Origin: Nemertoderma westbladi
Lineage: Eukaryota > Animalia > Xenacoelomorpha
Direction: 5' to 3'
Assembly (NCBI GenBank): GCA_032718475.1
Contig: JAUCBJ010003662.1
Location: 33,802-97,801, forward strand
Length of the DNA: 64,000 bases
Below the pieces are notes generated by a model. That model was not told the DNA's origin, made no database searches, and was given only the letters and a program-made list of their open reading frames with translations. Positions 48,001 through 64,000 of the stretch are shown here, in pieces (position 1 is the first letter of the stretch; every line of letters starts with the position of its first letter). The position numbers and the translations under genes are program-made.

Positions 48001-49281
48001 GTTGTTTGTTTGCTCACCTGTTCAGTTTTATTACGTGGTTCTGTTGTTTGTTTGCTCACCTGTTCAGTTTTATTACGTGGTTCTGTTGTTTGTTTGCTCA
48101 CCTGTTCAGTTGTATTACGTGGTTCTGTTGTTTGTTTGCTCACCTGTTCAGTTTTATTACGTGGTTCTGTTGTTTGTTTGCTCACCTGTTCAGTTGTATT
48201 ACGTGGTTCTGTTGTTTGTTTGCTCACCTGTTCAGTTGTATTACGTGGTTCTGTTGTTTGTTTGCTCACCTGTTCAGTTTTATTACGTGGTTCTGTTGTT
48301 TGTTTGCTCACCTGTTCAGTTTTATTACGTGGTTCTGTTGTTTGTTTGCTCACCTGTTCAGTTGTATTACGTGGTTCTGTTGTTTGTTTGCTCACCTGTT
48401 CAGTTGTATTACGTGGTTCTGTTGTTTGTTTGCTCACCTGTTCAGTTGTATTACGTGGTTCTGTTGTTTGTTTGCTCACCTGTTCAGTTTTATTACGTGG
48501 TTCTGTTGTTTGTTTGCTCACCTGTTCAGTTATATTACGTGGTTCTGTTGTTTGTTTGCTCACCTGTTCAGTTATATTACGTGGTTCTGTTGTTTGTTTG
48601 CTCACCTGTTCAGTTTTATTACGTGGTTCTGTTGTTTGTTTGCTCACCTGTTCAGTTGTATTACGTGGTTCTGTTGTTTGTTTGCTCACCTGTTCCGTTA
48701 TATTACGTGGTTCTGTTGTTTGTTTGCTCACCTGTTCAGTTGTATTACGTGGTTCTGTTGTTTGTTTGCTCACCTGTTCAGTTTTATTACGTGGTTCTGT
48801 TGTTTGTTTGCTCACCTGTTCAGTTGTATTACGTGGTTCTGTTGTTTGTTTGCTCACCTGTTCAGTTTTATTACGTGGTTCTCTTGCTTGTTTGCTCACC
48901 TGTTCAGTTTTATAACGTGGTTCTGTTGTTTGTTTGCTCACCTGTTCAGTTGTATTACGTGGTTCTGTTGTTTGTTTGCTCACCTGTTCAGTTATATTAC
49001 GTGGTTCTGTTGTTTGTTTGCTCACCTGTTCAGTTTTATTACGTGGTTCTGTTGTTTGTTTGCTCACCTGTTCAGTTTTATTACGTGGTTCTGTTGTTTG
49101 TTTGCTCACCTGTTCAGTTGTATTACGTGGTTCTGTTGTTTGTTTGCTCACCTGTTCAGTTTTATTACGTGGTTCTGTTGTTTGTTTGCTCACCTGTTCA
49201 GTTTTATTACGTGGTTCTGTTGTTTGTTTGCTCACCTGTTCAGTTATATTACGTGGGTCTGTTGTTTGTTTGCTCACCTGT
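1..49281 (+). repeat. 42-bp tandem satellite/minisatellite array, left arm (runs off the window start)
   Basis: Continuous head-to-tail copies of TGTTTGTTTGCTCACCTGTTCAGTT(G/T/A)TATTACGTGGTTCTGT (21 T, 10 G, 7 C, 4 A in the G allele). All copies are in one orientation. Interspersed length variants of 23, 27, 41, 43-45 and 48 bp occur. Confidence 0.99.
49277..49281 (+). other. Target-site duplication CCTGT (partner at 56123-56127)
   Basis: Uninterrupted copies of the same monomer context (e.g. 241-292) contain CCTGT once, while the insertion has it on both sides. Confidence 0.95.
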
Positions 49282-49812
49282 TGTGACGGGATCTACGGAT
49301 CCCGGTTTATCCGTTGGGTTTTCTATCCACGCGTACCCGCCGTGTGTGAAAGGTAAAAGAGTTCTGATGTTGGGTAATATGTATAAAGGTATAATAGTCT
49401 GATAGTTGATATAGTATAGTATGACACAACAGGTAATATATAATGGCGGTAGCGGACGGTGATAGAAGTCACCGTTCCACCCTACTGAACTAACTGAGTA
49501 AACTAAACTGATATGATTACAGGTTACTGGTTATATTGCACGGTGGCCTTATTGCTACTCAATCGATGCCTTTCCCCCCTCTGATTGGTTGATACCCCTG
49601 TTGGCACCCTTTGGAGTGTTTCCCTTCACTCCCTGTGTTCTCTCTCGGTTAGGGGTTTGGCCCCTGACCCCTATTGTGTGTGTCTCCTTTGGGGCCTATT
49701 ATCTCCGTTTACTGGGCTGACACGAGGTTGATTGGTAATCAACCTCGTGCTCCCAATATTGCTTTATGGCTCACTCTATGGGTTTGTGTTAGCGGAATTG
49801 GATAAGCTAACA
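49282..49812 (-). repeat. 3' LTR (531 bp)
   Basis: 529/531 identical to the other LTR by eye. Immediately preceded on the minus strand by the PPT. Confidence 0.97.
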
Positions 49813-49822
49813 CTCCCCCCCC
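49813..49822 (-). promoter_or_regulatory. Polypurine tract (GGGGGGGGAG)
   Basis: Minus strand reads ATGGGGGGGGAG|TGTTAGC, directly abutting the 3' LTR. This fixes the element orientation. Confidence 0.9.
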
Positions 49823-50320
49823 ATGCTATCTTCCCGGTGAGAAGATAGCATCCAACTAAAGTGCGCTACAATTCCGCTGGATCCCGATCTAGCATCGGGT
49901 GTGGGGTGGGTATATTTTTTCTTTCGGAGTCGGCTTTCCAGGCCGCTCCCTATGGGTATGATGTCACTACCCTCTGGCGTCTCGTGTCGGGCCGATCGTG
50001 CGCTTCTCTCACACAATTTTTGTTTCCCCAACACTCTCACCACTCTTAACTCCGCTCTCTGACTCAACTCGCTCTTACCCTCTCCCCACACCTGAATCGC
50101 ACTCCTCTCTCTCGCCAACAGTTCCTCTCACTATCTCCTCTCTAATCTCTGCCACTCTCTAAGGCCCTGACCTCTAATGCTACCCCTGTGCTATCATACT
50201 ATCTACCTACTACTCACTTGCTAACTATCTAACTCTCTTACTAACTCTAACTATCTCTCTAAGCCTACTAACTTTAACTCTAACTCTTTACTAAGTCTAA
50301 CTAACTCCTACTAACTCTTT

Positions 50321-50432
50321 ACTTCTACTAACTCTCTTGACTCCTCTAAGTCTACCAACTCCGCTAACTAGCTCTCTACTTCTACTAACTCTCTTGACTC
50401 CTCTAAGTCTACCAACTCCGCTAACTAGCTCT
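50321..50432. repeat. 57-bp-period direct tandem duplication
   Basis: ACTTCTACTAACTCTCTTGACTCCTCTAAGTCTACCAACTCCGCTAACTAGCTCT at 50321 and 50378. Confidence 0.9.
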
Positions 50433-50460
50433 ACTAACTCTACTCCACTCTTCTAACTAT

Positions 50461-51105
50461 GTGGCGCTTGCGGTGCCCACAACCACTTACTATCTGGCAC
50501 CATATGTGCCCGTCTCTACTATTCTACTACCTGGCACCCTATGTGCCCTCACTATTACACTACTACCTCTCTAACTCTACTACCTGGCACCCTATGTGCC
50601 CTCTCTACTACCCTACTCTATCTCTAACTCTCTAACTCTACTACCTGGCACCCTATGTGCCCTGTCTACTACTCTACTCTATCTCTAACTTACCTCCTTT
50701 ACATCTACTCCCTTTACGTCTACTCGCCTACACGTGACGCTCTGAGTGCCGGCAGAGTGGGTACGTTAATCATGTGAACTACTACTAACTCTTACTAACT
50801 CTACTTCTAACTCTCTCTAACTCTCTACTAACTCTCTACTAACTCTCTTAACTCTCTACTCTTCTACTTACGTGGTGCTTGCGGTGCCCACAACCACTCT
50901 ACTATCTGGCACCCTATGTGCCCTTCTACTACTCAACTACCTCCACTACTAACTCCTTTTGTGCCCGGCACCTCTCGTGCCCGGCACCCACCCTAATTAA
51001 CATACCCTGCTCTAACATCAAACACGTCATCACGCCCGTGCCCCATTAAGTTCAACGCATTCCCTACTAACTCTAACTACGTGGCGCTTACGGTGCCCAC
51101 AACCT
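50461..51105. repeat. Dispersed hairpin repeats GGCAC-N5/6-GTGCC (about 6 copies) and GTGGYGCTTRCGGTGCCCACAACC (3 copies)
   Basis: GGCAC(C)CTATGTGCC-type copies near 50496, 50533, 50586, 50647, 50907 and 50967. The second motif is at 50461, 50872 and 51081. Confidence 0.88.
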
Positions 51106-51130
51106 CTACTGCTCTACTACTTCCTAACTA

Positions 51131-51770
51131 GCGGTACTTACGTACCCTCTAACTCTAACTAGGTACTACGTACCTATTAACTCTAACTCTAACTAGGTAC
51201 CACGTACCTACTGACTCTCTAACTAACTCTAGGTACTACGTACCTACTAACTCTAACTCTAACTAGCGGTACTACGTACCCACTAACTCTAACTCTAACT
51301 AGCGGTACTACGTACCCTCTAACTATAACTCTAACTAGCGGTACTACGTACCCTCTAACTCTAACTAGCGGTACTACGTACCCTCTAACTCTAACTCTAA
51401 CTAGCGGTACTACGTACCCTCTAACTCTAACTCTAACTAGCGGTACTACGTACCCTCTAACTCTAACTCTAACTAGCGGTACTACGTACCCTCTAACTCT
51501 AACTCTAACTAGCGGTACTACGTACCCTCTAACTCTAACTAACTCTAGGTACTACGTACCTACTAACTCTCTAACTCTAGGTACTACGTACCTACTAACT
51601 CTAACTCTGACTAGGTACTACGTACCTACTAACTCTCTAGCTCTCTCTACTAGCTAGCGGTACTACGTACCTTCTTACTCTTACTAAATACTAACTCTCT
51701 CTCTCTTACTAACCGGTACTACGTACCCTTTAACTCTTACTCTCTCTAACTAATGGTACTGCGTACCCTC
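51131..51770. repeat. Internal tandem array of about 18 GGTAC-TAC-GTACC mini-hairpins spaced by (CTCTAA)n
   Basis: 36-bp units CTAGCGGTACTACGTACCCTCTAACTCTAACTCTAA start at 51365, 51401, 51437, 51473 and 51509 (the last with a divergent tail). TAGGTACTACGTACCTA variants flank them. Confidence 0.92.
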
Positions 51771-51827
51771 TAACTACTCTAACTGACTAACTAACTAACT
51801 CTTACTACCTAACTTACTTCTACCTAC

Positions 51828-51848
51828 TTTATTATTTAATTATTTATT
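51828..51848 (-). terminator. Two AATAAA hexamers just after the gag stop (candidate internal poly(A) signal)
   Basis: + strand TTTATT at 51828-51833 and 51843-51848, 9-29 nt beyond the TAA at 51857. The context is AT-rich, so this could be chance. Confidence 0.4.
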
Positions 51849-51856
51849 GTTTTTAA

Positions 51857-53614
51857 TTAAATAATTATTTTATATTTTGTGCGTGGGAAGGGCGTATCGC
51901 CCTCATTCCCACCCCCCTCAGTCCAAAACTTTGGACGACTAAAAACTCTCACGTGCCCCTTCTTCCGGTAGGCACTCTCCTGCTGCTCTCCTATACGTCC
52001 TTTAACTCTTCGCCACACTCTCTTCGGTGCTACCTTTGCTGGCCTCCCCCTTCGTATGTGCGCTGGCATTAAAGCCCTCGACGACCCCCACTCGTCCCTC
52101 GGTATACGCGGTGTCTGCCCATGTAATGCCCCCCCGCACTGTGTCAGCCCTGCGTGTGTATGCAACACGCCTCCTTCTACTTTCCCGACTCCTTTGCTCA
52201 TGGACTTCTCTACCCCTGGTTTAGTCCTTTCACATCCTCTCCCTTTCCAACACTCTCCGGATCTGTGTCCTTTTACCACACATCGATGACATAGTCCGTT
52301 TGCGTCTGTGTAGGCTACACGATCTCGTTTGGGCAACGCTCGCCAGTACTTGCAACTCCTGGTCTTATGGGTTCCGTCCCGATGTAATTGACATTGGAAT
52401 CCTGGATTATAGCGTTTCCTGTATAGTCCTTCACGTATCGCGCTTAGGTTTATATGTACCGATTTAATGTTTTGGTTGTCTAGACTCGGCCTACTGGGTA
52501 TATTGGGATTGTTTTTATTTACGGTGTTATTTTCTTTCTGTCCCTGCCACGGTGTGGCCCTCCTACCACCTTGTATGGCCGCGTGTGGTAGCGACTGTCC
52601 GCACGACCTTCTTCTGTCCAAGGGGTCCGATGTTCTGGCTCCTACTGGGGTATATTGTTGATATTGTGATGGGGGAATGTCACCCTGTCCCCCCCCAGCC
52701 GGTATGTTTGGTACTGGGGTTGATGTTAATGTATTGGGGCCCATACATCTATCTCCAATAACTCTCCCATCCCCTGGATATATGTTATGTCCCTGTGTAT
52801 TATAGTCATGCTGCTGTACCGATATAGGCCTACCCAGTTCTTGCCTACCTACCGGTATGTACTCCGCGGCTCCCGGGTTTAACCCCGTCGCTCGCGCTAC
52901 CCTATCGCCTACTCTATCTCTCCCAGCATGGCCTATAATAGTATGTGCAGTAAGGCCTACAGTATGTCCTGCAGTCTGCATGTGCCCTTCCGAACCGAAG
53001 TTTATTCTTCGCGAATCTCGAATCTCCCCGCGACTACTGCACTCGCGATCGGCAGCTATATCCCGTCGGGAAGCTTCTCTTCGATCCCATCTCCTGTTCT
53101 CGACTTTGTATTGGTACCTCCTGTACCCCTCTCTTGGCGTGCGGTGCGTTTCTCCGGGGCGACGGCAATCTCCCGAAGTTCGACCCCACTGGCTCCCTGA
53201 CTCCATCTCTACTGTCGACGGTCCGTTATCCGTCCTCGCACTGCTATCGTTCGTGGCGACACTTCTTCTACTATCTTCTCTTCTTCTCTTTTCTGTGTAG
53301 TATTCCGGCTCGTGAGGTCTCTCGTCGACCTCCCGGTTAAACTCCACTGTTCTTCTTCCCTCTTCTGGTCGGGCTCGACGCTTCGCCTGCCCTCTCGCGA
53401 TGCCAACCTGCCTCTCTCTGCTCGATCGCACGCCGCTGGGGATACTCGCAATCCCCCTATTACTCTCCGTCGCCGGGTGTTGCAGTTTACCTGGTTCGGC
53501 CCGCGCATTATCCGCTGACGGCTGTGGGACACTCTCTGCCCCCCCCTCTCTCTCTACTAACTTCTCGCGGTGGGGTGCCCGTAGCCCCCCCCCACCCGCC
53601 ACTTCTAACTTCAC
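51857..53614 (-). CDS. gag: Gag-like polyprotein, C-terminal part with two zinc knuckles and a basic tail
   Basis: CQLHRDGTHKTRSC (CX2HX4HX4C), a 20-aa linker ending in L, then CHRCVVKGHRSGEC (CX2CX4HX4C), at 52250-52393. Lies in the +1 frame relative to ORF1 and overlaps it. No early ATG of its own. Confidence 0.8.
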   Translation of the reverse strand: MKLEVAGGGGLRAPHREKLVEREGGAESVPQPSADNARAEPGKLQHPATESNRGIASIPSGVRSSRERQVGIARGQAKRRARPEEGRRTVEFNREVDERPHEPEYYTEKRRREDSRRSVATNDSSARTDNGPSTVEMESGSQWGRTSGDCRRPGETHRTPREGYRRYQYKVENRRWDRREASRRDIAADRECSSRGEIRDSRRINFGSEGHMQTAGHTVGLTAHTIIGHAGRDRVGDRVARATGLNPGAAEYIPVGRQELGRPISVQQHDYNTQGHNIYPGDGRVIGDRCMGPNTLTSTPVPNIPAGGGQGDIPPSQYQQYTPVGARTSDPLDRRRSCGQSLPHAAIQGGRRATPWQGQKENNTVNKNNPNIPSRPSLDNQNIKSVHINLSAIREGLYRKRYNPGFQCQLHRDGTHKTRSCKYWRALPKRDRVAYTDANGLCHRCVVKGHRSGECWKGRGCERTKPGVEKSMSKGVGKVEGGVLHTHAGLTQCGGALHGQTPRIPRDEWGSSRALMPAHIRRGRPAKVAPKRVWRRVKGRIGEQQESAYRKKGHVRVFSRPKFWTEGGGNEGDTPFPRTKYKIII

Positions 53615-55475
53615 TATCTCTTACTACACCTTTGCGTCCCTCTTGTCGGACACTCTCTACCCCCCTTCTCTCGCCACTAATCTCTCGCGGTGGGGCGCCC
53701 GTAGCCCACCCCCACCCGCCACTTCCAACTTCACTACCTCTTACTACACTTCTACACTCCTCTCTAGTCGACGCACTGTCTCTACTACGGCTGGGTCTAT
53801 TCACCCCCGCCTCTCTCTCTACTACTGCGTGGCCCATCAGGCCCACCTCGGGTTGGCTCAACCCCGCTACCTCCTGTCTACCAACTACGTGGCCTACCAG
53901 GCCGCCGTCGGGTTGGCTCAACCCTGCCACCTCCTGCCTACTAACTACGTGGCCTACCAGGCCACCGTCTGCTGAGTTATGTACGTCCGACACGCTCATA
54001 TTAATAGCACCATTCCCAATATTATTTGTTAAATCAATTAAATTATTAGAATTTGAAACGGAATTATTATTTAAATTATTTTGCGGGTTTGAATTGAAAT
54101 TATTATTTAGAGTATTTGTATTTAAATTTAAATTACTACTACCCGGTAAAATATTACTTGCTGCAATAAAGGGATTAGGGTTATCTACTACGGTACTATT
54201 AATATTAACATTTCCTAACGTACTACTATTACCCCCCCCGCCCGTACGGCTACACCAGTTCTGGTTTTCCCGCCTGGTGCCTGTAAGTGGGGGCTCACTC
54301 TCTGATATTTCCAACCGCGCCAGTTCTAGTCGGCGCTGGTTTAGTTTGGCCCGATATTGCACAAGCCTCCCTATCCGGGCACACAAATCATCCCGCTCAC
54401 GCTCACCCTCTATCTCTCTCTCTCTGCACTCTCGTAAACTTCGCTCGGCCCTCTCTCTCGCAAGCATTTCAGACCGCTTTGCCGACTCGCTCTCTACTCC
54501 CATCTCCCGCTCTCTACACTCCTCGGCTCTCTCTCTATCTTTCTTTGCCCACTCTCTTTCTCTCTCCAACCACGCGGTTTCCTCACTCAATCGTCTCTCT
54601 AACTCATTCTGCTCTGTCGCAACCTTTTCTAATTTATACGCCACGCGTTCACTCTCTCGCACCCTTCTTTCTTTTGCGGAGGATGTAGCAGACTTGTCGG
54701 TTGCGACGGACTCCCGTCGCCCCTCTGTCCCACCAACTTTCCCCCGCCTCCCGGAACTTCCTCCGACCGACGAGACCGAATCCTCAGAGTTAACCTCGGA
54801 TTCGCCCTCCTCAGGTCTCTTCCAACCCACTAATTTTATATCCTGGGCATCGACTAAGTATGGCCCTATGTACACTACACTAGGTTCCATACCCCCACAT
54901 TCCCATAGTTTAAACAGTTCGAAGGCAACTCCCCACGCCCTCAACTCTGCTAGTTCTCTCTGCCCAGAACACACTAGGTGATCAAAGTATCTGTTCGACT
55001 CACCTAGTCGCTTTCTCAGTCTCACCTCGTCTATCCTCGCCCCCTCCTTGGCCTCCTTTAGTAGTTCCCTGGTCGCGAGGTAGGCTCGTCGAAGTCGATC
55101 AGAAACCCCGACGTCCTCGTCGCCGACCTCTCCTCCATCTCTCCGGGTCCGACGTCGTACCGACGGCCCCACCGTCGCCGTTCCGGTGGACCGTTCGTCG
55201 TCCTCGGCCTGTGGCTGGCCTGCGACATCGGTACGTCGACCCTCGCTCCGCGTCGACTCGTCTTTCTCTTCTCCTCCCTTCTCGTCTCCTTCCCTCGACT
55301 CGCTCTCCGGTTGTAGACGACCCCCCACATCTCGGTTCGCCGGGTTGCTCGTTGTCGACGTGGTCGGCGTAGCATCGACCGGCGTCGTGGGTTCGTATCG
55401 TCTCGCCGTGGCCTCGCGGATCGTTAGATCGTCGTCCGGGGTCCGCGGCGGTGTCGTTCCTATCTCTCGACTCAT
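53508..55475 (-). CDS. gag: Gag-like polyprotein, N-terminal part (655 aa from first ATG): charged disordered N-terminus, S-rich linker, E/R coiled coil, Asn-rich tract, peptide repeats
   Basis: ATG at 55475 in a near-optimal Kozak context (GCTGCCACGATGA), about 115 nt downstream of the 5' LTR. Long open frame. The E/R-rich segment looks coiled-coil. Probably continuous with the next ORF. Confidence 0.75.
   Translation of the reverse strand: MSREIGTTPPRTPDDDLTIREATARRYEPTTPVDATPTTSTTSNPANRDVGGRLQPESESREGDEKGGEEKDESTRSEGRRTDVAGQPQAEDDERSTGTATVGPSVRRRTRRDGGEVGDEDVGVSDRLRRAYLATRELLKEAKEGARIDEVRLRKRLGESNRYFDHLVCSGQRELAELRAWGVAFELFKLWECGGMEPSVVYIGPYLVDAQDIKLVGWKRPEEGESEVNSEDSVSSVGGSSGRRGKVGGTEGRRESVATDKSATSSAKERRVRESERVAYKLEKVATEQNELERRLSEETAWLEREREWAKKDRERAEECREREMGVESESAKRSEMLARERAERSLRECREREIEGERERDDLCARIGRLVQYRAKLNQRRLELARLEISESEPPLTGTRRENQNWCSRTGGGGNSSTLGNVNINSTVVDNPNPFIAASNILPGSSNLNLNTNTLNNNFNSNPQNNLNNNSVSNSNNLIDLTNNIGNGAINMSVSDVHNSADGGLVGHVVSRQEVAGLSQPDGGLVGHVVGRQEVAGLSQPEVGLMGHAVVEREAGVNRPSRSRDSASTREECRSVVRGSEVGSGGWGWATGAPPREISGERRGVESVRQEGRKGVVRDSEVRSGGWGGATGTPPREVSRERGGGRECPTAVSG
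53528..53970 (-). repeat. Coding tandem repeats in gag: 2 x about 120 bp (40 aa) and about 2.5 x 60 bp (20 aa)
   Basis: VVRGSEVGSGGWGWATGAPPREISGERRGVESV vs VVRDSEVRSGGWGGATGTPPREVSRERGG. GGLVGHVV(S/G)RQEVAGLSQP(D/E) occurs twice, followed by VGLMGHAV. Confidence 0.9.
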
Positions 55476-55580
55476 CGTGGCAGCCACAGTCTGTCAGTTG
55501 GTTGGATCCAGTTCTATCACTGTCAGACTGTTAGGGCAGCTGCTAGGATCCTATCTCTGTCAGGGCAGCTGGGCGGATCT

Positions 55581-55591
55581 AGTTCTATCAC
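55581..55591 (-). promoter_or_regulatory. Putative non-canonical primer-binding site (GTGATAGAACT)
   Basis: Occupies the PBS position right after the 5' LTR end (...CCCGTCACA|GTGATAGAACT). Has no TGG. Complementary to LTR 55769-55777. A second copy sits at 55510-55520. Confidence 0.55.
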
Positions 55592-56122
55592 TGTGACGGG
55601 ATCTACGGATCCCGGTTTATCCGTTGGGTTTTCTATCCACGCGTCCCCGCCGTGTGTGAAAGGTAAAAGAGTTCTGATGTTGGGTAATATGTATAAAGGT
55701 ATAATAGTCTGATAGTTGATATAGTATAGTATGACACAACAGGTAATATATAATGGCGGTAGCGGACGGTGATAGAAGTCACCGTTCCACCCTACTGAAC
55801 TAACTGAGTAAACTAAACTGATATGATTACAGGTTACTGGTTATATTGCACGGTGGCCTTATTGCTACTCAATCGATGCCTTTCCCCCCTCTGATTGGTT
55901 GATACCCCTGTTGGCACCCTTTGGAGTGTTTCCCTTCACTCCCTGTGTTCTCTCTCGGTTAGGGGTTTGGCCCCTGACCCCTATTGTGTGTGTCTCCTTT
56001 GGGGCCTATTATCCCCGTTTACTGGGCTGACACGAGGTTGATTGGTAATCAACCTCGTGCTCCCAATATTGCTTTATGGCTCACTCTATGGGTTTGTGTT
56101 AGCGGAATTGGATAAGCTAACA
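55592..56122 (-). repeat. 5' LTR (531 bp)
   Basis: + strand reads TGTGACGGGATC...GATAAGCTAACA. Matches 49282-49812 except at 55645 (C vs A) and 56014 (C vs T). Lies upstream of the gag ORF on the minus strand. Confidence 0.97.
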
Positions 56123-59100
56123 CCTGTTCAGTTGTACATGTATTCCATGGTTCTGTTGTTTGTTTGCTCACCTGTTCAGATTTTTTACGTGGTTCTGTTG
56201 TTTGTTTGCTCACCTGTTCAGTTGTATTACGTGGTTCTGTTGTTTGTTTGCTCACCTGTTCAGTTGTATTACGTGGTTCTGTTGTTTGTTTGCTCACCTG
56301 TTCAGTTGTATTACGTGGTTCTGTTGTTTGTTTGCTCACCTGTTCAGTTTTATTACGTGGTTCTGTTGTTTGTTTGCTCAGCTGTTCAGTTATTTTACGT
56401 GGTTCTGTTGTTTGTTTGCTCACCTGTTCAGTTATATTACGTGGTTCTGTTGTTTGTTTGCTCACCTGTTTAGTTTTATTACGTGGTTCTGTTGTTTGTT
56501 TGCTCACCTGTTCAGTTGTATTACGTGGTTCTGTTGTTTGTTTGCTCACCTGTTCCGTTATATTACGTGGTTCTGTTGTTTGTTTGCTCACCGGTTCAGT
56601 TGTATTACGTGGTTCTGTTGTTTGTTTGCTCACCTGTTCAGTTTTATTACGTGGTTCTGTTGTTTGTTTGCTCACCTGTTCAGTTGTATTACGTGGTTCT
56701 GTTGTTTGTTTGCTCACCTGTTCAGTTTTATTACGTGGTTCTGTTGTTTGTTTGCTCACCTGTTCAGTTTTATAACGTGGTTCTGTTGTTTGTTTGCTCA
56801 CCTGTTCAGTTGTATTACGTGGTTCTGTTGTTTGTTTGCTCACCTGTTCAGTTTTATTACGTGGTTCTGTTGTTTGTTTGCTCACCTGTTCAGTTTTATT
56901 ACGTGGTTCTGTTGTTTGTTTGCTCACCTGTTCAGTTGTATTACGTGGTTCTGTTGTTTGTTTGCTCACCTGTTCAGTTTTATTACGTGGTTCTGTTGTT
57001 TGTTTGCTCACCTGTTCAGTTTTATTACGTGGTTCTGTTGTTTGTTTGCTCACCTGTTCAGTTTTATTACGTGGTTCTGTTGTTTGTTTGCTCACCTGTT
57101 CAGTTGTATTACGTGGTTCTGATGTTTGTTTACTCACCTGTTTAGTTTTTGTTTGCTCACCTGTTCAGTTTTATTACGTGGTTCTGTTGTTTGTTTACTC
57201 ACCTGTTTAGTTTTTGTTTGCTCACCTGTTCAGTTGTATTACGTGGTTCTGTTGTTTGTTTGCTCACCTGTTCAGTTTTATTACGTGGTTCTGTTGTTTG
57301 TTTGCTCACCTGTTCAGGTTTTTTTTACGTGGTTCTGTTGTTTGTTTGCTCACCTGTTCAGTTGTATTACGTGGTTCTGTTGTTTGTTTGCTCACCTGTT
57401 CAGTTTTATTACGTGGTTCTGTTGTTTGTTTGCTCACCTGTTCAGTTGTAATACGTGGTTCTGTTGTTTGTTTGCTCACCTGTTCAGTTGTATTACGTGG
57501 TTCTGTTGTTTGTTTGCTCACCTGTTCAGGTTTTTTTTACGTGGTTCTGTTGTTTGTTTGCTCACCTGTTCAGTTGTATTACGTGGTTCTGTTGTTTGTT
57601 TGCTCACCTGTTCAGTTGTATTACGTGGTTCTGTTGTTTGTTTGCTCACCTGTTCAGTTGTATTACGTGGTTCTGTTGTTTGTTTGCTCACCTGTTCAGT
57701 TTTATTACGTGGTTCTGTTGTTTGTTTGCTCACCTGTTCAGTTGTATTACGTGGTTCTGTTGTTTGTTTGCTCACCTGTTCAGTTGTATTACGTGGTTCT
57801 GCTGTTTGTTTGCTCACCTGTTCAGTTGTATTACGTGGTTCTGTTGTTTGTTTGCTCACCTGTTCAGTTGTATTACGTGGTTCTGTTGTTTGTTTGCTCA
57901 CCTGTTCAGTTTTATTACGTGGTTCTGTTGTTTGTTTGCTCACCTGTTCAGTTGTATTACGTGGTTCTGTTGTTTGTTTGCTCACCTGTTCAGTTGTATT
58001 ACGTGGTTCTGCTGTTTGTTTGCTCACCTGTTCAGTTGTATTACGTGGTTCTGTTGTTTGTTTGCTCACCTGTTCAGTTTTATTACGTGGTTCTGTTGTT
58101 TGTTTACTCACCTGTTCAGTGGTATTACGTGGTTCTGTTGTTTGTTTGCTCACCTGTTCAGTTGTATTACGTGGTTCTGTTGTTTGTTTGCTCACCTGTT
58201 CAGTTGTATTACGTGGTTCTGTTGTTTGTTTGCTCACCTGTTCAGTTTTATTACGTGGTTCTGTTGTTTGTTTGCTCACCTGTTCAGTTTTATTACGTGG
58301 TTCTGTTGTTTGTTTGCTCACCTGTTCAGTTGTATTACGTGGTTCTGTTGTTTGTTTGCTCACCTGTTTAGTTTTTGTTTGCTCACCTGTTCAGTTTTAT
58401 TACGTGGTTCTGTTGTTTGTTTACTCACCTGTTTAGTTTTTGTTTGCTCACCTGTTCAGTTGTATTACGTGGTTCTGTTGTTTGTTTGCTCACCTGTTCA
58501 GTTTTATTACGTGGTTCTGTTGTTTGTTTGCTCACCTGTTAAGTTTTATTACGTGGTTCTGTTGTTTGTTTGCTCACCTGTTCAGTTGTATTACGTGGTT
58601 CTGTTGTTTGTTTGCTCACCTGTTCAGTTTTATTACGTGGTTCTGTTGTTTGTTTGCTCACCTGTTCAGTTGTATTACGTGGTTCTGTTGTTTGTTTGCT
58701 CACCTGTTCAGTTGTATTACGTGGTTCTGTTGTTTGTTTGCTCACCTGTTCAGTTTTATTACGTGGTTCTGTTGTTTGTTTGCTCACCTGTTCAGTTTTA
58801 TTACGTGGTTCTGTTGTTTGTTTGCTCACCTGTTCAGTTGTATTACGTGGTTCTGTTGTTTGTTTGCTCACCTGTTCAGTTGTATTACGTGGTTCTGTTG
58901 TTTGTTTGCTCACCTGTTCTGTTGTATTACGTGGTTCTGTTGTTTGTTTGCTCACCTGTTCAGTTTTATTACGTGGTTCTGTTGTTTGTTTGCTCACCTG
59001 TTCAGTTATATTACGTGGTTCTGTTGTTTGTTTGCTCACCTGTTCAGTTATATTACGTGGTTCTGTTGTTTGTTTGCTCACCTGTTCAGTTTTATTACGT

Positions 59101-62100
59101 GGTTCTGTTGTTTGTTTGCTCACCTGTTCAGTTGTATTACGTGGTTCTGTTGTTTGTTTGCTCACCTGTTCAGTTTTATTACGTGGTTCTGTTGTTTGTT
59201 TGCTCACCTGTTCAGTTGTATTACGTGGTTCTGTTGTTTGTTTGCTCACCTGTTCAGTTTTATTACGTGGTTCTGTTGTTTGTTTGCTCACCTGTTCAGT
59301 TTTATTACGTGGTTCTGTTGTTTGTTTGCTCACCTGTTCAGTTTTATTACGTGGTTCTGTTGTTTGTTTGCTCACCTGTTCAGTTATATTACGTGGTTCT
59401 GTTGTTTGTTTGCTCACCTGTTCAGTTTTATTACGTGGTTCTGTTGTTTGTTTGCTCACCTGTTCAGTTGTATTACGTGGTTCTGTTGTTTGTTTGCTCA
59501 CCTGTTCAGTTTTATTACGTGGTTCTGTTGTTTGTTTGCTCACCTGTTCAGTTTTATTACGTGGTTCTGTTGTTTGTTTGCTCACCTGTTCAGGTTTTTT
59601 ACGTGGTTCTGTTGTTTGTTTGCTCACCTGTTCAGTTGTATTACGTGGTTCTGTTGTTTGTTTGCTCACCTGTTCAGTTGTATTACGTGGTTCTGTTGTT
59701 TGTTTGCTCACCTGTTCAGTTGTATTACGTGGTTCTGTTGTTTGTTTGCTCACCTGTTCCGTTATATTACGTGGTTCTGTTGTTTGTTTGCTCACCTGTT
59801 CAGTTGTATTACGTGGTTCTGTTGTTTGTTTGCTCACCTGTTCAGTTTTATTACGTGGTTCTGTTGTTTGTTTGCTCACCTGTTCAGTTGTATTACGTGG
59901 TTCTGTTGTTTGTTTGCTCACCTGTTCAGTTTTATTACGTGGTTCTCTTGCTTGTTTGCTCACCTGTTCAGTTTTATAACGTGGTTCTGTTGTTTGTTTG
60001 CTCACCTGTTCAGTTGTATTACGTGGTTCTGTTGTTTGTTTGCTCACCTGTTCAGTTTTATTACGTGGTTCTGTTGTTTGTTTTCTCACCTGTTCAGTTG
60101 TATTACGTGGTTCTGTTGTTTGTTTGCTCACCTGTTCAGTTGTATTACGTGGTTATGTTGTTTGTTTGCTCACCTGTTCAGTTTTATTACGTGGTTCTGT
60201 TGTTTGTTTGCTCACCTGTTCAGTTTTATTACGTGGTTCTGTTGTTTGTTTGCTCACCTGTTCAGTTGTATTACGTGGTTCTGTTGTTTGTTTGCTCACC
60301 TGTTCAGTTATATTACGTGGTTCTGTTGTTTGTTTGCTCACCTGTTCAGTTTTATTACGTGGTTCTGTTGTTTGTTTGCTCACCTGTTCAGTTGTATTAC
60401 GTGGTTCTGTTGTTTGTTTGCTCACCTGTTCAGTTTTATTACGTGGTTCTCTTGCTTGTTTGCTCACCTGTTCAGTTTTATTACGTGGTTCTGTTGTTTG
60501 TTTGCTCACCTGTTCAGTTGTATTACGTGGTTCTGTTGTTTGTTTGCTCACCTGTTCAGTTTTATTACGTGGTTCTGTTGTTTGTTTGCTCACCTGTTCA
60601 GTTGTATTACGTGGTTCTGTTGTTTGTTTGCTCACCTGTTCAGTTGTATTACGTGGTTCTGTTGTTTGTTTGCTCACCTGTTCAGTTTTATTACGTGGTT
60701 CTGTTGTTTGTTTGCTCACCTGTTCAGTTTTATTACGTGGTTCTGTTGTTTGTTTGCTCACCTGTTCAGTTGTATTACGTGGTTCTGCTGTTTGTTTGCT
60801 CACCTGTTCAGTTGTATTACGTGGTTCTGTTGTTTGTTTGCTCACCTGTTCAGTTGTATTACGTGGTTCTGTTGTTTGTTTGCTCACCTGTTCAGTTTTA
60901 TTACGTGGTTCTGTTGTTTGTTTGCTCACCTGTTCAGTTGTATTACGTGGTTCTGTTGTTTGTTTGCTCACCTGTTCAGTTGTATTACGTGGTTCTGCTG
61001 TTTGTTTGCTCACCTGTTCAGTTGTATTACGTGGTTCTGTTGTTTGTTTGCTCACCTGTTCAGTTTTATTACGTGGTTCTGTTGTTTGTTTACTCACCTG
61101 TTCAGTGGTATTACGTGGTTCTGTTGTTTGTTTGCTCACCTGTTCAGTTGTATTACGTGGTTCTGTTGTTTGTTTGCTCACCTGTTCAGTTGTATTACGT
61201 GGTTCTGTTGTTTGTTTGCTCACCTGTTCAGTTTTATTACGTGGTTCTGTTGTTTGTTTGCTCACCTGTTCAGTTTTATTACGTGGTTCTGTTGTTTGTT
61301 TGCTCACCTGTTCAGTTGTATTACGTGGTTCTGTTGTTTGTTTGCTCACCTGTTTAGTTTTTGTTTGCTCACCTGTTCAGTTTTATTACGTGGTTCTGTT
61401 GTTTGTTTACTCACCTGTTTAGTTTTTGTTTGCTCACCTGTTCAGTTGTATTACGTGGTTCTGTTGTTTGTTTGCTCACCTGTTCAGTTTTATTACGTGG
61501 TTCTGTTGTTTGTTTGCTCACCTGTTAAGTTTTATTACGTGGTTCTGTTGTTTGTTTGCTCACCTGTTCAGTTGTATTACGTGGTTCTGTTGTTTGTTTG
61601 CTCACCTGTTCAGTTTTATTACGTGGTTCTGTTGTTTGTTTGCTCACCTGTTCAGTTGTATTACGTGGTTCTGTTGTTTGTTTGCTCACCTGTTCAGTTG
61701 TATTACGTGGTTCTGTTGTTTGTTTGCTCACCTGTTCAGTTTTATTACGTGGTTCTGTTGTTTGTTTGCTCACCTGTTCAGTTTTATTACGTGGTTCTGT
61801 TGTTTGTTTGCTCACCTGTTCAGTTGTATTACGTGGTTCTGTTGTTTGTTTGCTCACCTGTTCAGTTGTATTACGTGGTTCTGTTGTTTGTTTGCTCACC
61901 TGTTCTGTTGTATTACGTGGTTCTGTTGTTTGTTTGCTCACCTGTTCAGTTTTATTACGTGGTTCTGTTGTTTGTTTGCTCACCTGTTCAGTTATATTAC
62001 GTGGTTCTGTTGTTTGTTTGCTCACCTGTTCAGTTATATTACGTGGTTCTGTTGTTTGTTTGCTCACCTGTTCAGTTTTATTACGTGGTTCTGTTGTTTG

Positions 62101-64000
62101 TTTGCTCACCTGTTCAGTTGTATTACGTGGTTCTGTTGTTTGTTTGCTCACCTGTTCAGTTTTATTACGTGGTTCTGTTGTTTGTTTGCTCACCTGTTCA
62201 GTTGTATTACGTGGTTCTGTTGTTTGTTTGCTCACCTGTTCAGTTTTATTACGTGGTTCTGTTGTTTGTTTGCTCACCTGTTCAGTTTTATTACGTGGTT
62301 CTGTTGTTTGTTTGCTCACCTGTTCAGTTTTATTACGTGGTTCTGTTGTTTGTTTGCTCACCTGTTCAGTTATATTACGTGGTTCTGTTGTTTGTTTGCT
62401 CACCTGTTCAGTTGTATTACGTGGTTCTGTTGTTTGTTTGCTCACCTGTTCAGTTGTATTACGTGGTTCTGTTGTTTGTTTGCTCACCTGTTCAGTTTTA
62501 TTACGTGGTTCTGTTGTTTGTTTGCTCACCTGTTCAGTTTTATTACGTGGTTCTGTTGTTTGTTTGCTCACCTGTTCAGGTTTTTTACGTGGTTCTGTTG
62601 TTTGTTTGCTCACCTGTTCAGTTGTATTACGTGGTTCTGTTGTTTGTTTGCTCACCTGTTCAGTTGTATTACGTGGTTCTGTTGTTTGTTTGCTCACCTG
62701 TTCAGTTGTATTACGTGGTTCTGTTGTTTGTTTGCTCACCTGTTCCGTTATATTACGTGGTTCTGTTGTTTGTTTGCTCACCTGTTCAGTTGTATTACGT
62801 GGTTCTGTTGTTTGTTTGCTCACCTGTTCAGTTTTATTACGTGGTTCTGTTGTTTGTTTGCTCACCTGTTCAGTTGTATTACGTGGTTCTGTTGTTTGTT
62901 TGCTCACCTGTTCAGTTTTATTACGTGGTTCTCTTGCTTGTTTGCTCACCTGTTCAGTTTTATAACGTGGTTCTGTTGTTTGTTTGCTCACCTGTTCAGT
63001 TGTATTACGTGGTTCTGTTGTTTGTTTGCTCACCTGTTCAGTTTTATTACGTGGTTCTGTTGTTTGTTTTCTCACCTGTTCAGTTGTATTACGTGGTTCT
63101 GTTGTTTGTTTGCTCACCTGTTCAGTTGTATTACGTGGTTATGTTGTTTGTTTGCTCACCTGTTCAGTTTTATTACGTGGTTCTGTTGTTTGTTTGCTCA
63201 CCTGTTCAGTTTTATTACGTGGTTCTGTTGTTTGTTTGCTCACCTGTTCAGTTGTATTACGTGGTTCTGTTGTTTGTTTGCTCACCTGTTCAGTTATATC
63301 ACGTGGTTCTGTTGTTTGTTTGCTCACCTGTTCAGTTTTATTACGTGGTTCTGTTGTTTGTTTGCTCACCTGTTCAGTTGTATTACGTGGTTCTGTTGTT
63401 TGTTTGCTCACCTGTTCAGTTTTATTACGTGGTTCTCTTGCTTGTTTGCTCACCTGTTCAGTTTTATTACGTGGTTCTGTTGTTTGTTTGCTCACCTGTT
63501 CAGTTGTATTACGTGGTTCTGTTGTTTGTTTGCTCACCTGTTCAGTTTTATTACGTGGTTCTGTTGTTTGTTTGCTCACCTGTTCAGTTGTATTACGTGG
63601 TTCTGTTGTTTGTTTGCTCACCTGTTCAGTTGTATTACGTGGTTCTGTTGTTTGTTTGCTCACCTGTTCAGTTTTATTACGTGGTTCTGTTGTTTGTTTG
63701 CTCACCTGTTCAGTTTTATTACGTGGTTCTGTTGTTTGTTTGCTCACCTGTTCAGTTGTATTACGTGGTTCTGTTGTTTGTTTGCTCACCTGTTCAGTTG
63801 TATTACGTGGTTCTGTTGTTTGTTTGCTCACCTGTTCAGTTTTATTACGTGGTTCTGTTGTTTGTTTGCTCACCTGTTCAGTTGTATTACGTGGTTCTGA
63901 TGTTTGTTTACTCACCTGTTTAGTTTTTGTTTGCTCACCTGTTCAGTTTTATTACGTGGTTCTGTTGTTTGTTTACTCACCTGTTTAGTTTTTGTTTGCT
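56123..64000 (+). repeat. 42-bp tandem satellite array, right arm (runs off the window end)
   Basis: Same monomer and orientation. It resumes in register after the TSD (CCTGT-TCAGTTG). Confidence 0.99.

Follow-up and report, generated by a model that had tools for sequence, protein, structure and literature searches.

Sequence signature suggesting self-primed reverse transcription in a gag-only, probably BEL/Pao-derived retrotransposon of Nemertoderma westbladi

Self-priming and the BEL/Pao elements

BEL/Pao is one of the three big superfamilies of animal retrotransposons with long terminal repeats (LTRs); the family is metazoan and its replication is poorly understood (PMC8742986). In the profile issued by the International Committee on Taxonomy of Viruses, the Belpaoviridae are primed by a host transfer RNA (tRNA) at an 18-base primer-binding site (PBS) for tRNA-Arg or tRNA-Gly (PMC8742986). 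Self-priming has been shown for Tf1 and has been proposed for the Tf1/sushi group, for Tcn1 and for the TAR lineage of copia elements, as far as the available parts of these sources extend (PMC7175516, PMC4600332, PMC6317226, bioRxiv 10.1101/2022.12.06.519325). Here we describe an LTR retrotransposon in a 64,000-nucleotide stretch of Nemertoderma westbladi DNA (contig JAUCBJ010003662.1, positions 33,802 to 97,801; hereafter the window), whose leader begins, at the border of the 5' LTR, with a sequence complementary to that LTR. We consider it probable that this element primes its own reverse transcription, be it with a long or a short primer. All positions are those of the window, and the features are read on the minus strand (Table 1).

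A literature search found no self-priming BEL/Pao element, within a coverage that left outside most subscription journals and the BEL/Pao sequence supplement of PMC3118150. In the available parts of the sources concerned, neither 'tRNA' nor 'PBS' occurs in PMC554778 (which describes Sinbad), PMC3118150 or PMC6238403, and 'tRNA' does not occur in PMC8220671.

The primer-binding site and its mirror copies

On the minus strand, GTGATAGAACT (55591-55581) comes immediately after the 5' LTR, which itself contains ACTTCTATCAC (55779-55769). These form nine contiguous Watson-Crick pairs (55777-55769 with 55583-55591), or 10 of 11 overall, and the match ends exactly at the LTR border; the locus shows a feature of the Tf1/sushi group, an LTR-adjacent PBS complementary to its own LTR. 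The initial annotation of this DNA had reported these sequences together with their pairing and border-exact end, and all of its coordinates were confirmed. Of 5,000 dinucleotide shuffles made of the LTR, 14 contained a perfect match of at least nine bases at offset 0; the number rose to 37 when offsets of 0-3 were allowed and to 78 with offsets of 0-10. Of the element's 5,770 internal 9-mers, 14 find a complement in the LTR, and the two copies of the PBS account for two of these: the same 11 bases recur at 55520-55510 (PBS2), again preceded by ACA.

No TGG is found within 80 bases of the LTR, the nearest lying at 55510 and 55486 (81 and 105 bases away), which bears out the earlier statement that there is no TGG to pair with a tRNA CCA end; an 18-base PBS for the 3' end of tRNA-Arg or tRNA-Gly is likewise absent. 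A tRNA gene search of the window returned none, and a search of the element against Rfam gave no family above threshold and one match below it. The anticodon loop of one common tRNA could form about seven pairs with the PBS, a wobble included, which is fewer than the self-match provides. The 7-base middle of the PBS is absent from the tRNA 3' 12-mers and PBS entries in the supplements of PMC13524379, a weak test that covers 3' ends only. A primer made by splicing was also considered and rejected: within the LTR, joining the ends of any GT/GC...AG segment of at least 20 bases creates no junction-spanning match as long as 7 bases, and removals of 35 or 22 LTR bases would give 12 paired bases but lack splice-site ends.

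The complement continues for about 28 bases past the 11-base match that was first reported, and in each leader unit it imperfectly mirrors one and the same stretch of the LTR. When the core was held fixed, the PBS1 extension found its equal in 10 tail shuffles and 3 LTR-side shuffles out of 600 each, that of PBS2 in 5 and 3 respectively, and neither in any of 197 other LTR windows. Duplex energy, again with the core fixed, was equalled in 82 (PBS1) and 78 (PBS2) of 3,000 shuffles. Alignment of the 42-base units to the whole LTR gave scores that were equalled by 0 of 3,000 shuffles for PBS1 and 1 of 3,000 for PBS2; the same score was reached by 2 of 1,862 other internal 42-mers, both in low-complexity tracts. 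The tails of both copies match the LTR at about two-thirds to seven-tenths of columns, and the core matches at 9/9 positions against 19/28 in the PBS1 tail, a difference in decay that fits selection on the border bases. A perfect core with diverged tails, taken together with the recent LTR pair described below, implies that the lineage moved recently with this PBS.

The leader as a whole is a degenerate tandem region, which also holds short palindromes at 55571-55566, 55543-55536 and 55488-55478. We take the palindromes in the segment 55476-55570 to resemble dimer-initiation sites. The proposal that the U5 segment opposite the core is a third and older mirror copy was rejected, since alignment gave it no support.

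Table 1. Features of the element, in window positions
Feature	Position	Strand	Remarks
Whole element, gag-only (non-autonomous) LTR retrotransposon, likely of BEL/Pao origin	49282..56122	-	6,841 bp
Target-site duplication, upstream copy	56123..56127	-	5 bp, within 42-bp satellite
5' LTR, TG...CA ends	55592..56122	-	531 bp
Promoter-like motifs, CCAAT (55898-55894) and TATAA (55845-55841)	55841..55898	-
Two TCAGTT initiator-like motifs (55821-55816, 55807-55802)	55802..55821	-	predicted start zone
Predicted long primer, the LTR segment of which each leader unit is a mirror copy	55769..55808	-	further predicted 7-, 4- and 5-bp helices with PBS1 tail
Predicted primer 3' end, perfect 9-base core	55769..55777	-	cut between 55769 and 55768 predicted from Tf1
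Predicted R:U5 stem (55768-55755 with 55651-55642)	55642..55768	-	10 bp plus 4-base bulge, stacked on primer 3' end
U5 segment competing with PBS for 9-base core in predicted folds	55631..55640	-
Predicted 7-bp U5 hairpin	55597..55614	-	ends 5 bases before PBS
PBS1 core, 9 bases	55583..55591	-	begins at first base past LTR
PBS1 extended unit, mirroring LTR 55808-55769 imperfectly	55555..55591	-	28/37 aligned columns match, 3 gap positions
PBS2, second copy in the leader, 71 bases downstream	55485..55520	-	mirrors same LTR stretch; 28/36 columns, 4 gap positions
Open reading frame (ORF) 1, 661 codons stop to stop	53508..55493	-	first ATG 55475; low-complexity, coiled-coil-like, no family match
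ORF2, 587 codons stop to stop	51857..53620	-	overlaps ORF1 in a different frame; two BEL/Pao-type zinc knuckles near 52420-52230
Perfect 13-bp hairpin, 3-base loop	49823..49851	-	adjoins polypurine tract
Polypurine tract	49813..49822	-	10 bases, adjoins 3' LTR
3' LTR	49282..49812	-	531 bp; 2 differences from 5' LTR (56014 and 55645 of 5' copy)
Target-site duplication, downstream copy	49277..49281	-	5 bp

Predicted transcription start and RNA folding

Promoter-like CCAAT and TATAA motifs precede two TCAGTT motifs that fit the initiator consensus, as given in the available part of PMC3601003. The mirror copy ends at about 55808-55805, at an initiator-like motif and 37 bases below the TATAA. Because the CCAAT, the TATAA, the TCAGTT pair and the end of the mirror copy all point upstream, the RNA probably starts near 55805-55819, 26-42 bases upstream of 55779. 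The start at 55777-55779 that had been proposed initially is therefore probably wrong; the accompanying remark that the nearest TATAA lies about 65 nucleotides upstream was accurate, the motif starting at 55845 and the measured distance to 55779 being 66 bases. In sequencing run X1 (share 0.10), 99 contigs fell on the element, mostly less than 95% alike, and there was no depth at 55465-55693, which includes the PBS, or at 49282-49510.

The folding model used here excludes pseudoknots. For an RNA starting at 55805, both best folds connect the 5' end with the PBS1 tail by helices of 5, 4 and 7 bp, and the partner of the core is either U5 55640-55631 (-63.3 kcal/mol) or PBS1 (-62.0 kcal/mol), so that the primer-paired fold costs 1.3 kcal/mol. 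The predicted R:U5 stem, which stacks on the predicted cut in that fold, was matched in stability by 23 of 2,000 shuffles. The three-duplex 'pretzel' of Tf1 was not recovered; in the predicted fold the 7-bp U5 hairpin lies on the 5' side of the PBS, and the 3' side pairs with LTR sequence situated upstream of the core. A local 7-bp inverted repeat at 55766-55787 on the minus strand spans the predicted cut and is absent from the predicted ensembles of longer fragments.

A model for priming and its alternatives

Self-priming with a primer of 37-50 bases, of which only the last nine need to pair perfectly, is in our judgement evenly balanced between right and wrong. Transcription would start near 55805-55819, and its first 37-50 bases would fold back on the leader, held there by helices of roughly 5, 4, 7 and 9 bp, of which those on the outside would keep the PBS beside the core while the core flips from its U5 partner to the PBS. 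By analogy with Tf1, the ribonuclease H (RNase H) of a reverse transcriptase (RT) supplied by an autonomous relative would cut after 55769, and the new 3' end would be extended into 177 bases of strong-stop DNA. The mirror copies may have originated when plus-strand synthesis once ran through the primer, writing its complement beside the LTR, after which strict selection would have acted on the nine border bases alone. Under this long-primer model a capped end would lie near 55805-55819 and an uncapped one at 55768, and 177 bases of strong-stop DNA would be joined to 37-50 bases of RNA.

Several observations weigh against this model. An element without pol cannot provide its own RNase H, and in contigs from metagenomes or genomes no relatives with LTRs were found for its Gag. 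If the RNA starts at 55805-55819, the predicted ensemble puts the core on PBS1 at a share of only 0.1 and on PBS2 at 0.0, the U5 segment competes for the core, and shuffled interiors favoured the primer-paired fold equally in 69 of 200 cases. The window lengths and scores for the extension were chosen after it had been spotted by eye, and the two leader copies, being duplicates and not independent, count as one. From the TATAA it is 40 bases to the 55807 initiator, a wider spacing than usual; the motifs at 55821/55816 suit the TATAA better but fall outside the mirror copy. The LTR contains no AATAAA, so that the R region which is required after the cut could not be located. Finally, to judge from the diverged tail, the long complement is not written anew each time the element replicates. 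Nor need the tail be rewritten: by the title of a reference given in PMC5371799, the primer sequence is reportedly not inherited in Ty1.

BEL/Pao queries found no relatives with LTRs in viral contigs or genome contigs, and none of the five loci of the P0001 lineage has two LTRs, so that the PBS cannot be placed and 0 of 5 were usable. A 15-base pattern was found at 41 viral loci and was set aside as chance.

The perfection of the match is limited to the nine border bases and Tf1 itself uses its first 11 bases (PMC7175516, in the part available), both of which would suit a strict Tf1 geometry in which the RNA starts at 55777-55779, the first 9-11 bases prime and the longer complement is left over from an older start. 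Fragments that start at 55779 and end at 55545 or 55476 do place the core on PBS1 at shares of 0.9 and 0.83; other fragment ends yield 0.18 or 0.02-0.06, and because the share varies in this way folding cannot settle the start site. No TATA or initiator-like motif suits 55779, however, the promoter motifs and mirror copy lying 26-42 bases upstream, and we regard this geometry as unlikely. It is distinctly unlikely that the mirror copies are a non-priming relic of one aberrant fold-back, with strong-stop DNA coming from a co-packaged helper RNA that shares the LTR. An element lacking pol needs a helper anyway, about a quarter of the mirror columns mismatch and the leader is a degenerate tandem region; against this, no helper with the same LTR is known, the perfect part stands exactly at the LTR border in both copies, and a relic would be expected to decay evenly, which the contrast between core and PBS1 tail does not show.

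The two predicted partners of similar energy for the core would also be expected if the LTR-leader pairing were a structural switch, acting in packaging, dimerisation or translation, and a host RNA such as a tRNA half or another small RNA primed at the same site. Other LTR elements include some with half-tRNA or bipartite primer sites, according to the available parts of PMC5371799 and PMC6317226. We think a host primer quite improbable here, given that there is no TGG near the LTR, that the middle of the site is missing from the 3'-end compilation of PMC13524379 (the weak test noted above), that Rfam gave no family above threshold and that the border-exact end of the perfect self-match would be left unexplained. 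Chance resemblance of a short leader motif to a 531-base LTR is hardly credible: the motifs are short, the tests were made post hoc and two low-complexity internal windows score equally, but the core was matched in only 14 of 5,000 shuffles, the extension in roughly 0.5-3 in 100 with the core fixed, and the match is sited where a primer site must lie. Self-priming, as it was first put forward for this DNA, thus stands as the best reading, given the lack of a tRNA-type site, the border-exact core present twice and the complement beyond chance; the priming step itself is what we infer.

A broader and more doubtful proposal, which we put forward tentatively, is that BEL/Pao elements can write their own primer site, when plus-strand synthesis runs through a long, capped 5' end of the RNA and leaves its complement beside the LTR. 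The product would be a U5-gated, multi-helix, tRNA-independent self-primer of 37-50 bases, the two decayed mirror copies here would be a fossil record of that process, and self-priming could by this route originate repeatedly. If BEL/Pao self-priming is real, the Tf1 trick would have been taken up independently once more, the element would depend no longer on the host's supply of tRNA and would escape silencing by tRNA fragments, and those BEL/Pao elements that have no assignable PBS would be explained.

Coding content and BEL/Pao affinity

The affinity to BEL/Pao that had been suggested for the element holds for the Gag zinc knuckles encoded by ORF2. When compared with 1.84 billion representative proteins, ORF2 gave only two matches (E 3e-5 and 3e-4), one of which has DUF1759 and the other a retroviral-type protease. 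Longer relatives of both carry DUF1759, and one set also carries the Pao peptidase and RT; profiles built from these relatives match ORF2 in a search of the element's six frames at E 5e-7 to 3e-14. The similarity is confined to the zinc-knuckle region. BEL/Pao Gag proteins have a triple Cys-His box, according to the available part of PMC554778; in ORF2 the third knuckle is not intact, and the other two align, with His standing in second place in the first, as it does in P0002. The Atlas gave a zinc-knuckle lead scoring below 0.9 for ORF2 and nothing for ORF1. Pfam assigned no family to either ORF, a search for longer proteins yielded 0 of 63 candidates, and a search of solved structures gave no match.

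No remnant of pol was found by tblastn with eight BEL/Pao polyproteins and three profiles, the sole match being the zinc-knuckle region of ORF2. Chromodomain, pol and Ty3/gypsy chromovirus proteins are all absent from the element, and its Gag is of BEL/Pao type. RT-based placement is impossible for an element that lacks pol, and we therefore describe it as likely BEL/Pao-derived and non-autonomous, judged from its sequence, and do not class it as a member. The overlap of ORF1 and ORF2 (53508-53620, 113 bases) lies inside a 120-bp duplication with long G runs and could reflect either a programmed frameshift or decay. Where pol would be expected, 50200-51820 holds about 2 kb of non-coding, strand-biased tandem sequence; a 36-bp unit with a palindromic core is present in 14 copies at 51147-51636, and there are also 57- and 61-bp repeats. 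Among metagenome contigs, a BEL/Pao lineage was observed at loci L042-L045; in L042 and L044 a single stop codon separates in-frame gag-protease and pol, and L045 has an extra 780-codon ORF 3' of the integrase.

Element anatomy and genomic setting

The two LTRs are identical at 529 of 531 positions and the target duplication is intact; the two LTR differences, the 5-bp duplication and the 10-base polypurine tract indicate a recent, integrase-made insertion. The perfect hairpin beside the polypurine tract could have a role in positioning plus-strand priming or in packaging. In U3, a 29-base near-perfect palindrome is present at 56031-56059 and 49721-49749. The element is a single minus-strand insertion within the window into a 42-bp satellite, which occupies 1-49281 and 56123-64000 in about 1,300 copies that are 97-99% alike in phase. 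The satellite has a strong AT skew, its long open frames are a consequence of the repeat, and the unit adjoining the upstream target site (56149-56130) is irregular.

Comparison with known systems

The element resembles the Belpaoviridae in LTR size (531 bp, within the range of 0.2-1.2 kb), TG...CA ends, polypurine tract, Gag knuckle type and 5-bp target duplication (PMC8742986). Unlike them, it has neither pol nor the 18-base tRNA-Arg or tRNA-Gly PBS (PMC8742986). With the GalEa copia elements of fungi it shares the lack of a tRNA site at the PBS position; in GalEa, as far as the available part of the source goes, a conserved hairpin site replaces the PBS and no complementary LTR sequence has been found, whereas a complement is present here (PMC5445492). 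In the TAR lineage of Ty1/copia (Houba, Osr-1) and the plant Tcn1 clade, self-priming was, as here, predicted from PBS-LTR complementarity alone (PMC6317226, available part). Those elements, however, belong to other superfamilies and to plants, and the same part of that source reports no long mirror copy for them (PMC6317226).

The closest likeness is to the Tf1/sushi group of Ty3/gypsy chromoviruses, including Tf1 and Tf2 of Schizosaccharomyces pombe, Tj1, Tosmo1-3 and Tcry1, which, in the available parts of the sources, have an LTR-adjacent PBS complementary to their own LTR and no tRNA site. The primer duplex of that group also has helices at its flanks, as is predicted for the present element, in the parts seen of PMC7175516, PMC4600332 and bioRxiv 10.1101/2022.12.06.519325. 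In contrast to the Tf1/sushi elements, the present one has a BEL/Pao-type Gag, no pol and a duplicated site; its perfect 9-base core sits within a 37-base imperfect complement, and the predicted primer exceeds the first 11 bases. In the available description, the two extra helices of the Tf1 'pretzel' both use LTR sequence downstream of the primer; in the present element the PBS tail is predicted to pair with LTR sequence on the upstream side of the core. The signature, clear and testable though it comes from one defective element, suggests that this retrotransposon would likely work like Tf1 and yet sits outside the Tf1 group, from which it would differ in primer length, helix layout and the duplication of its primer site.
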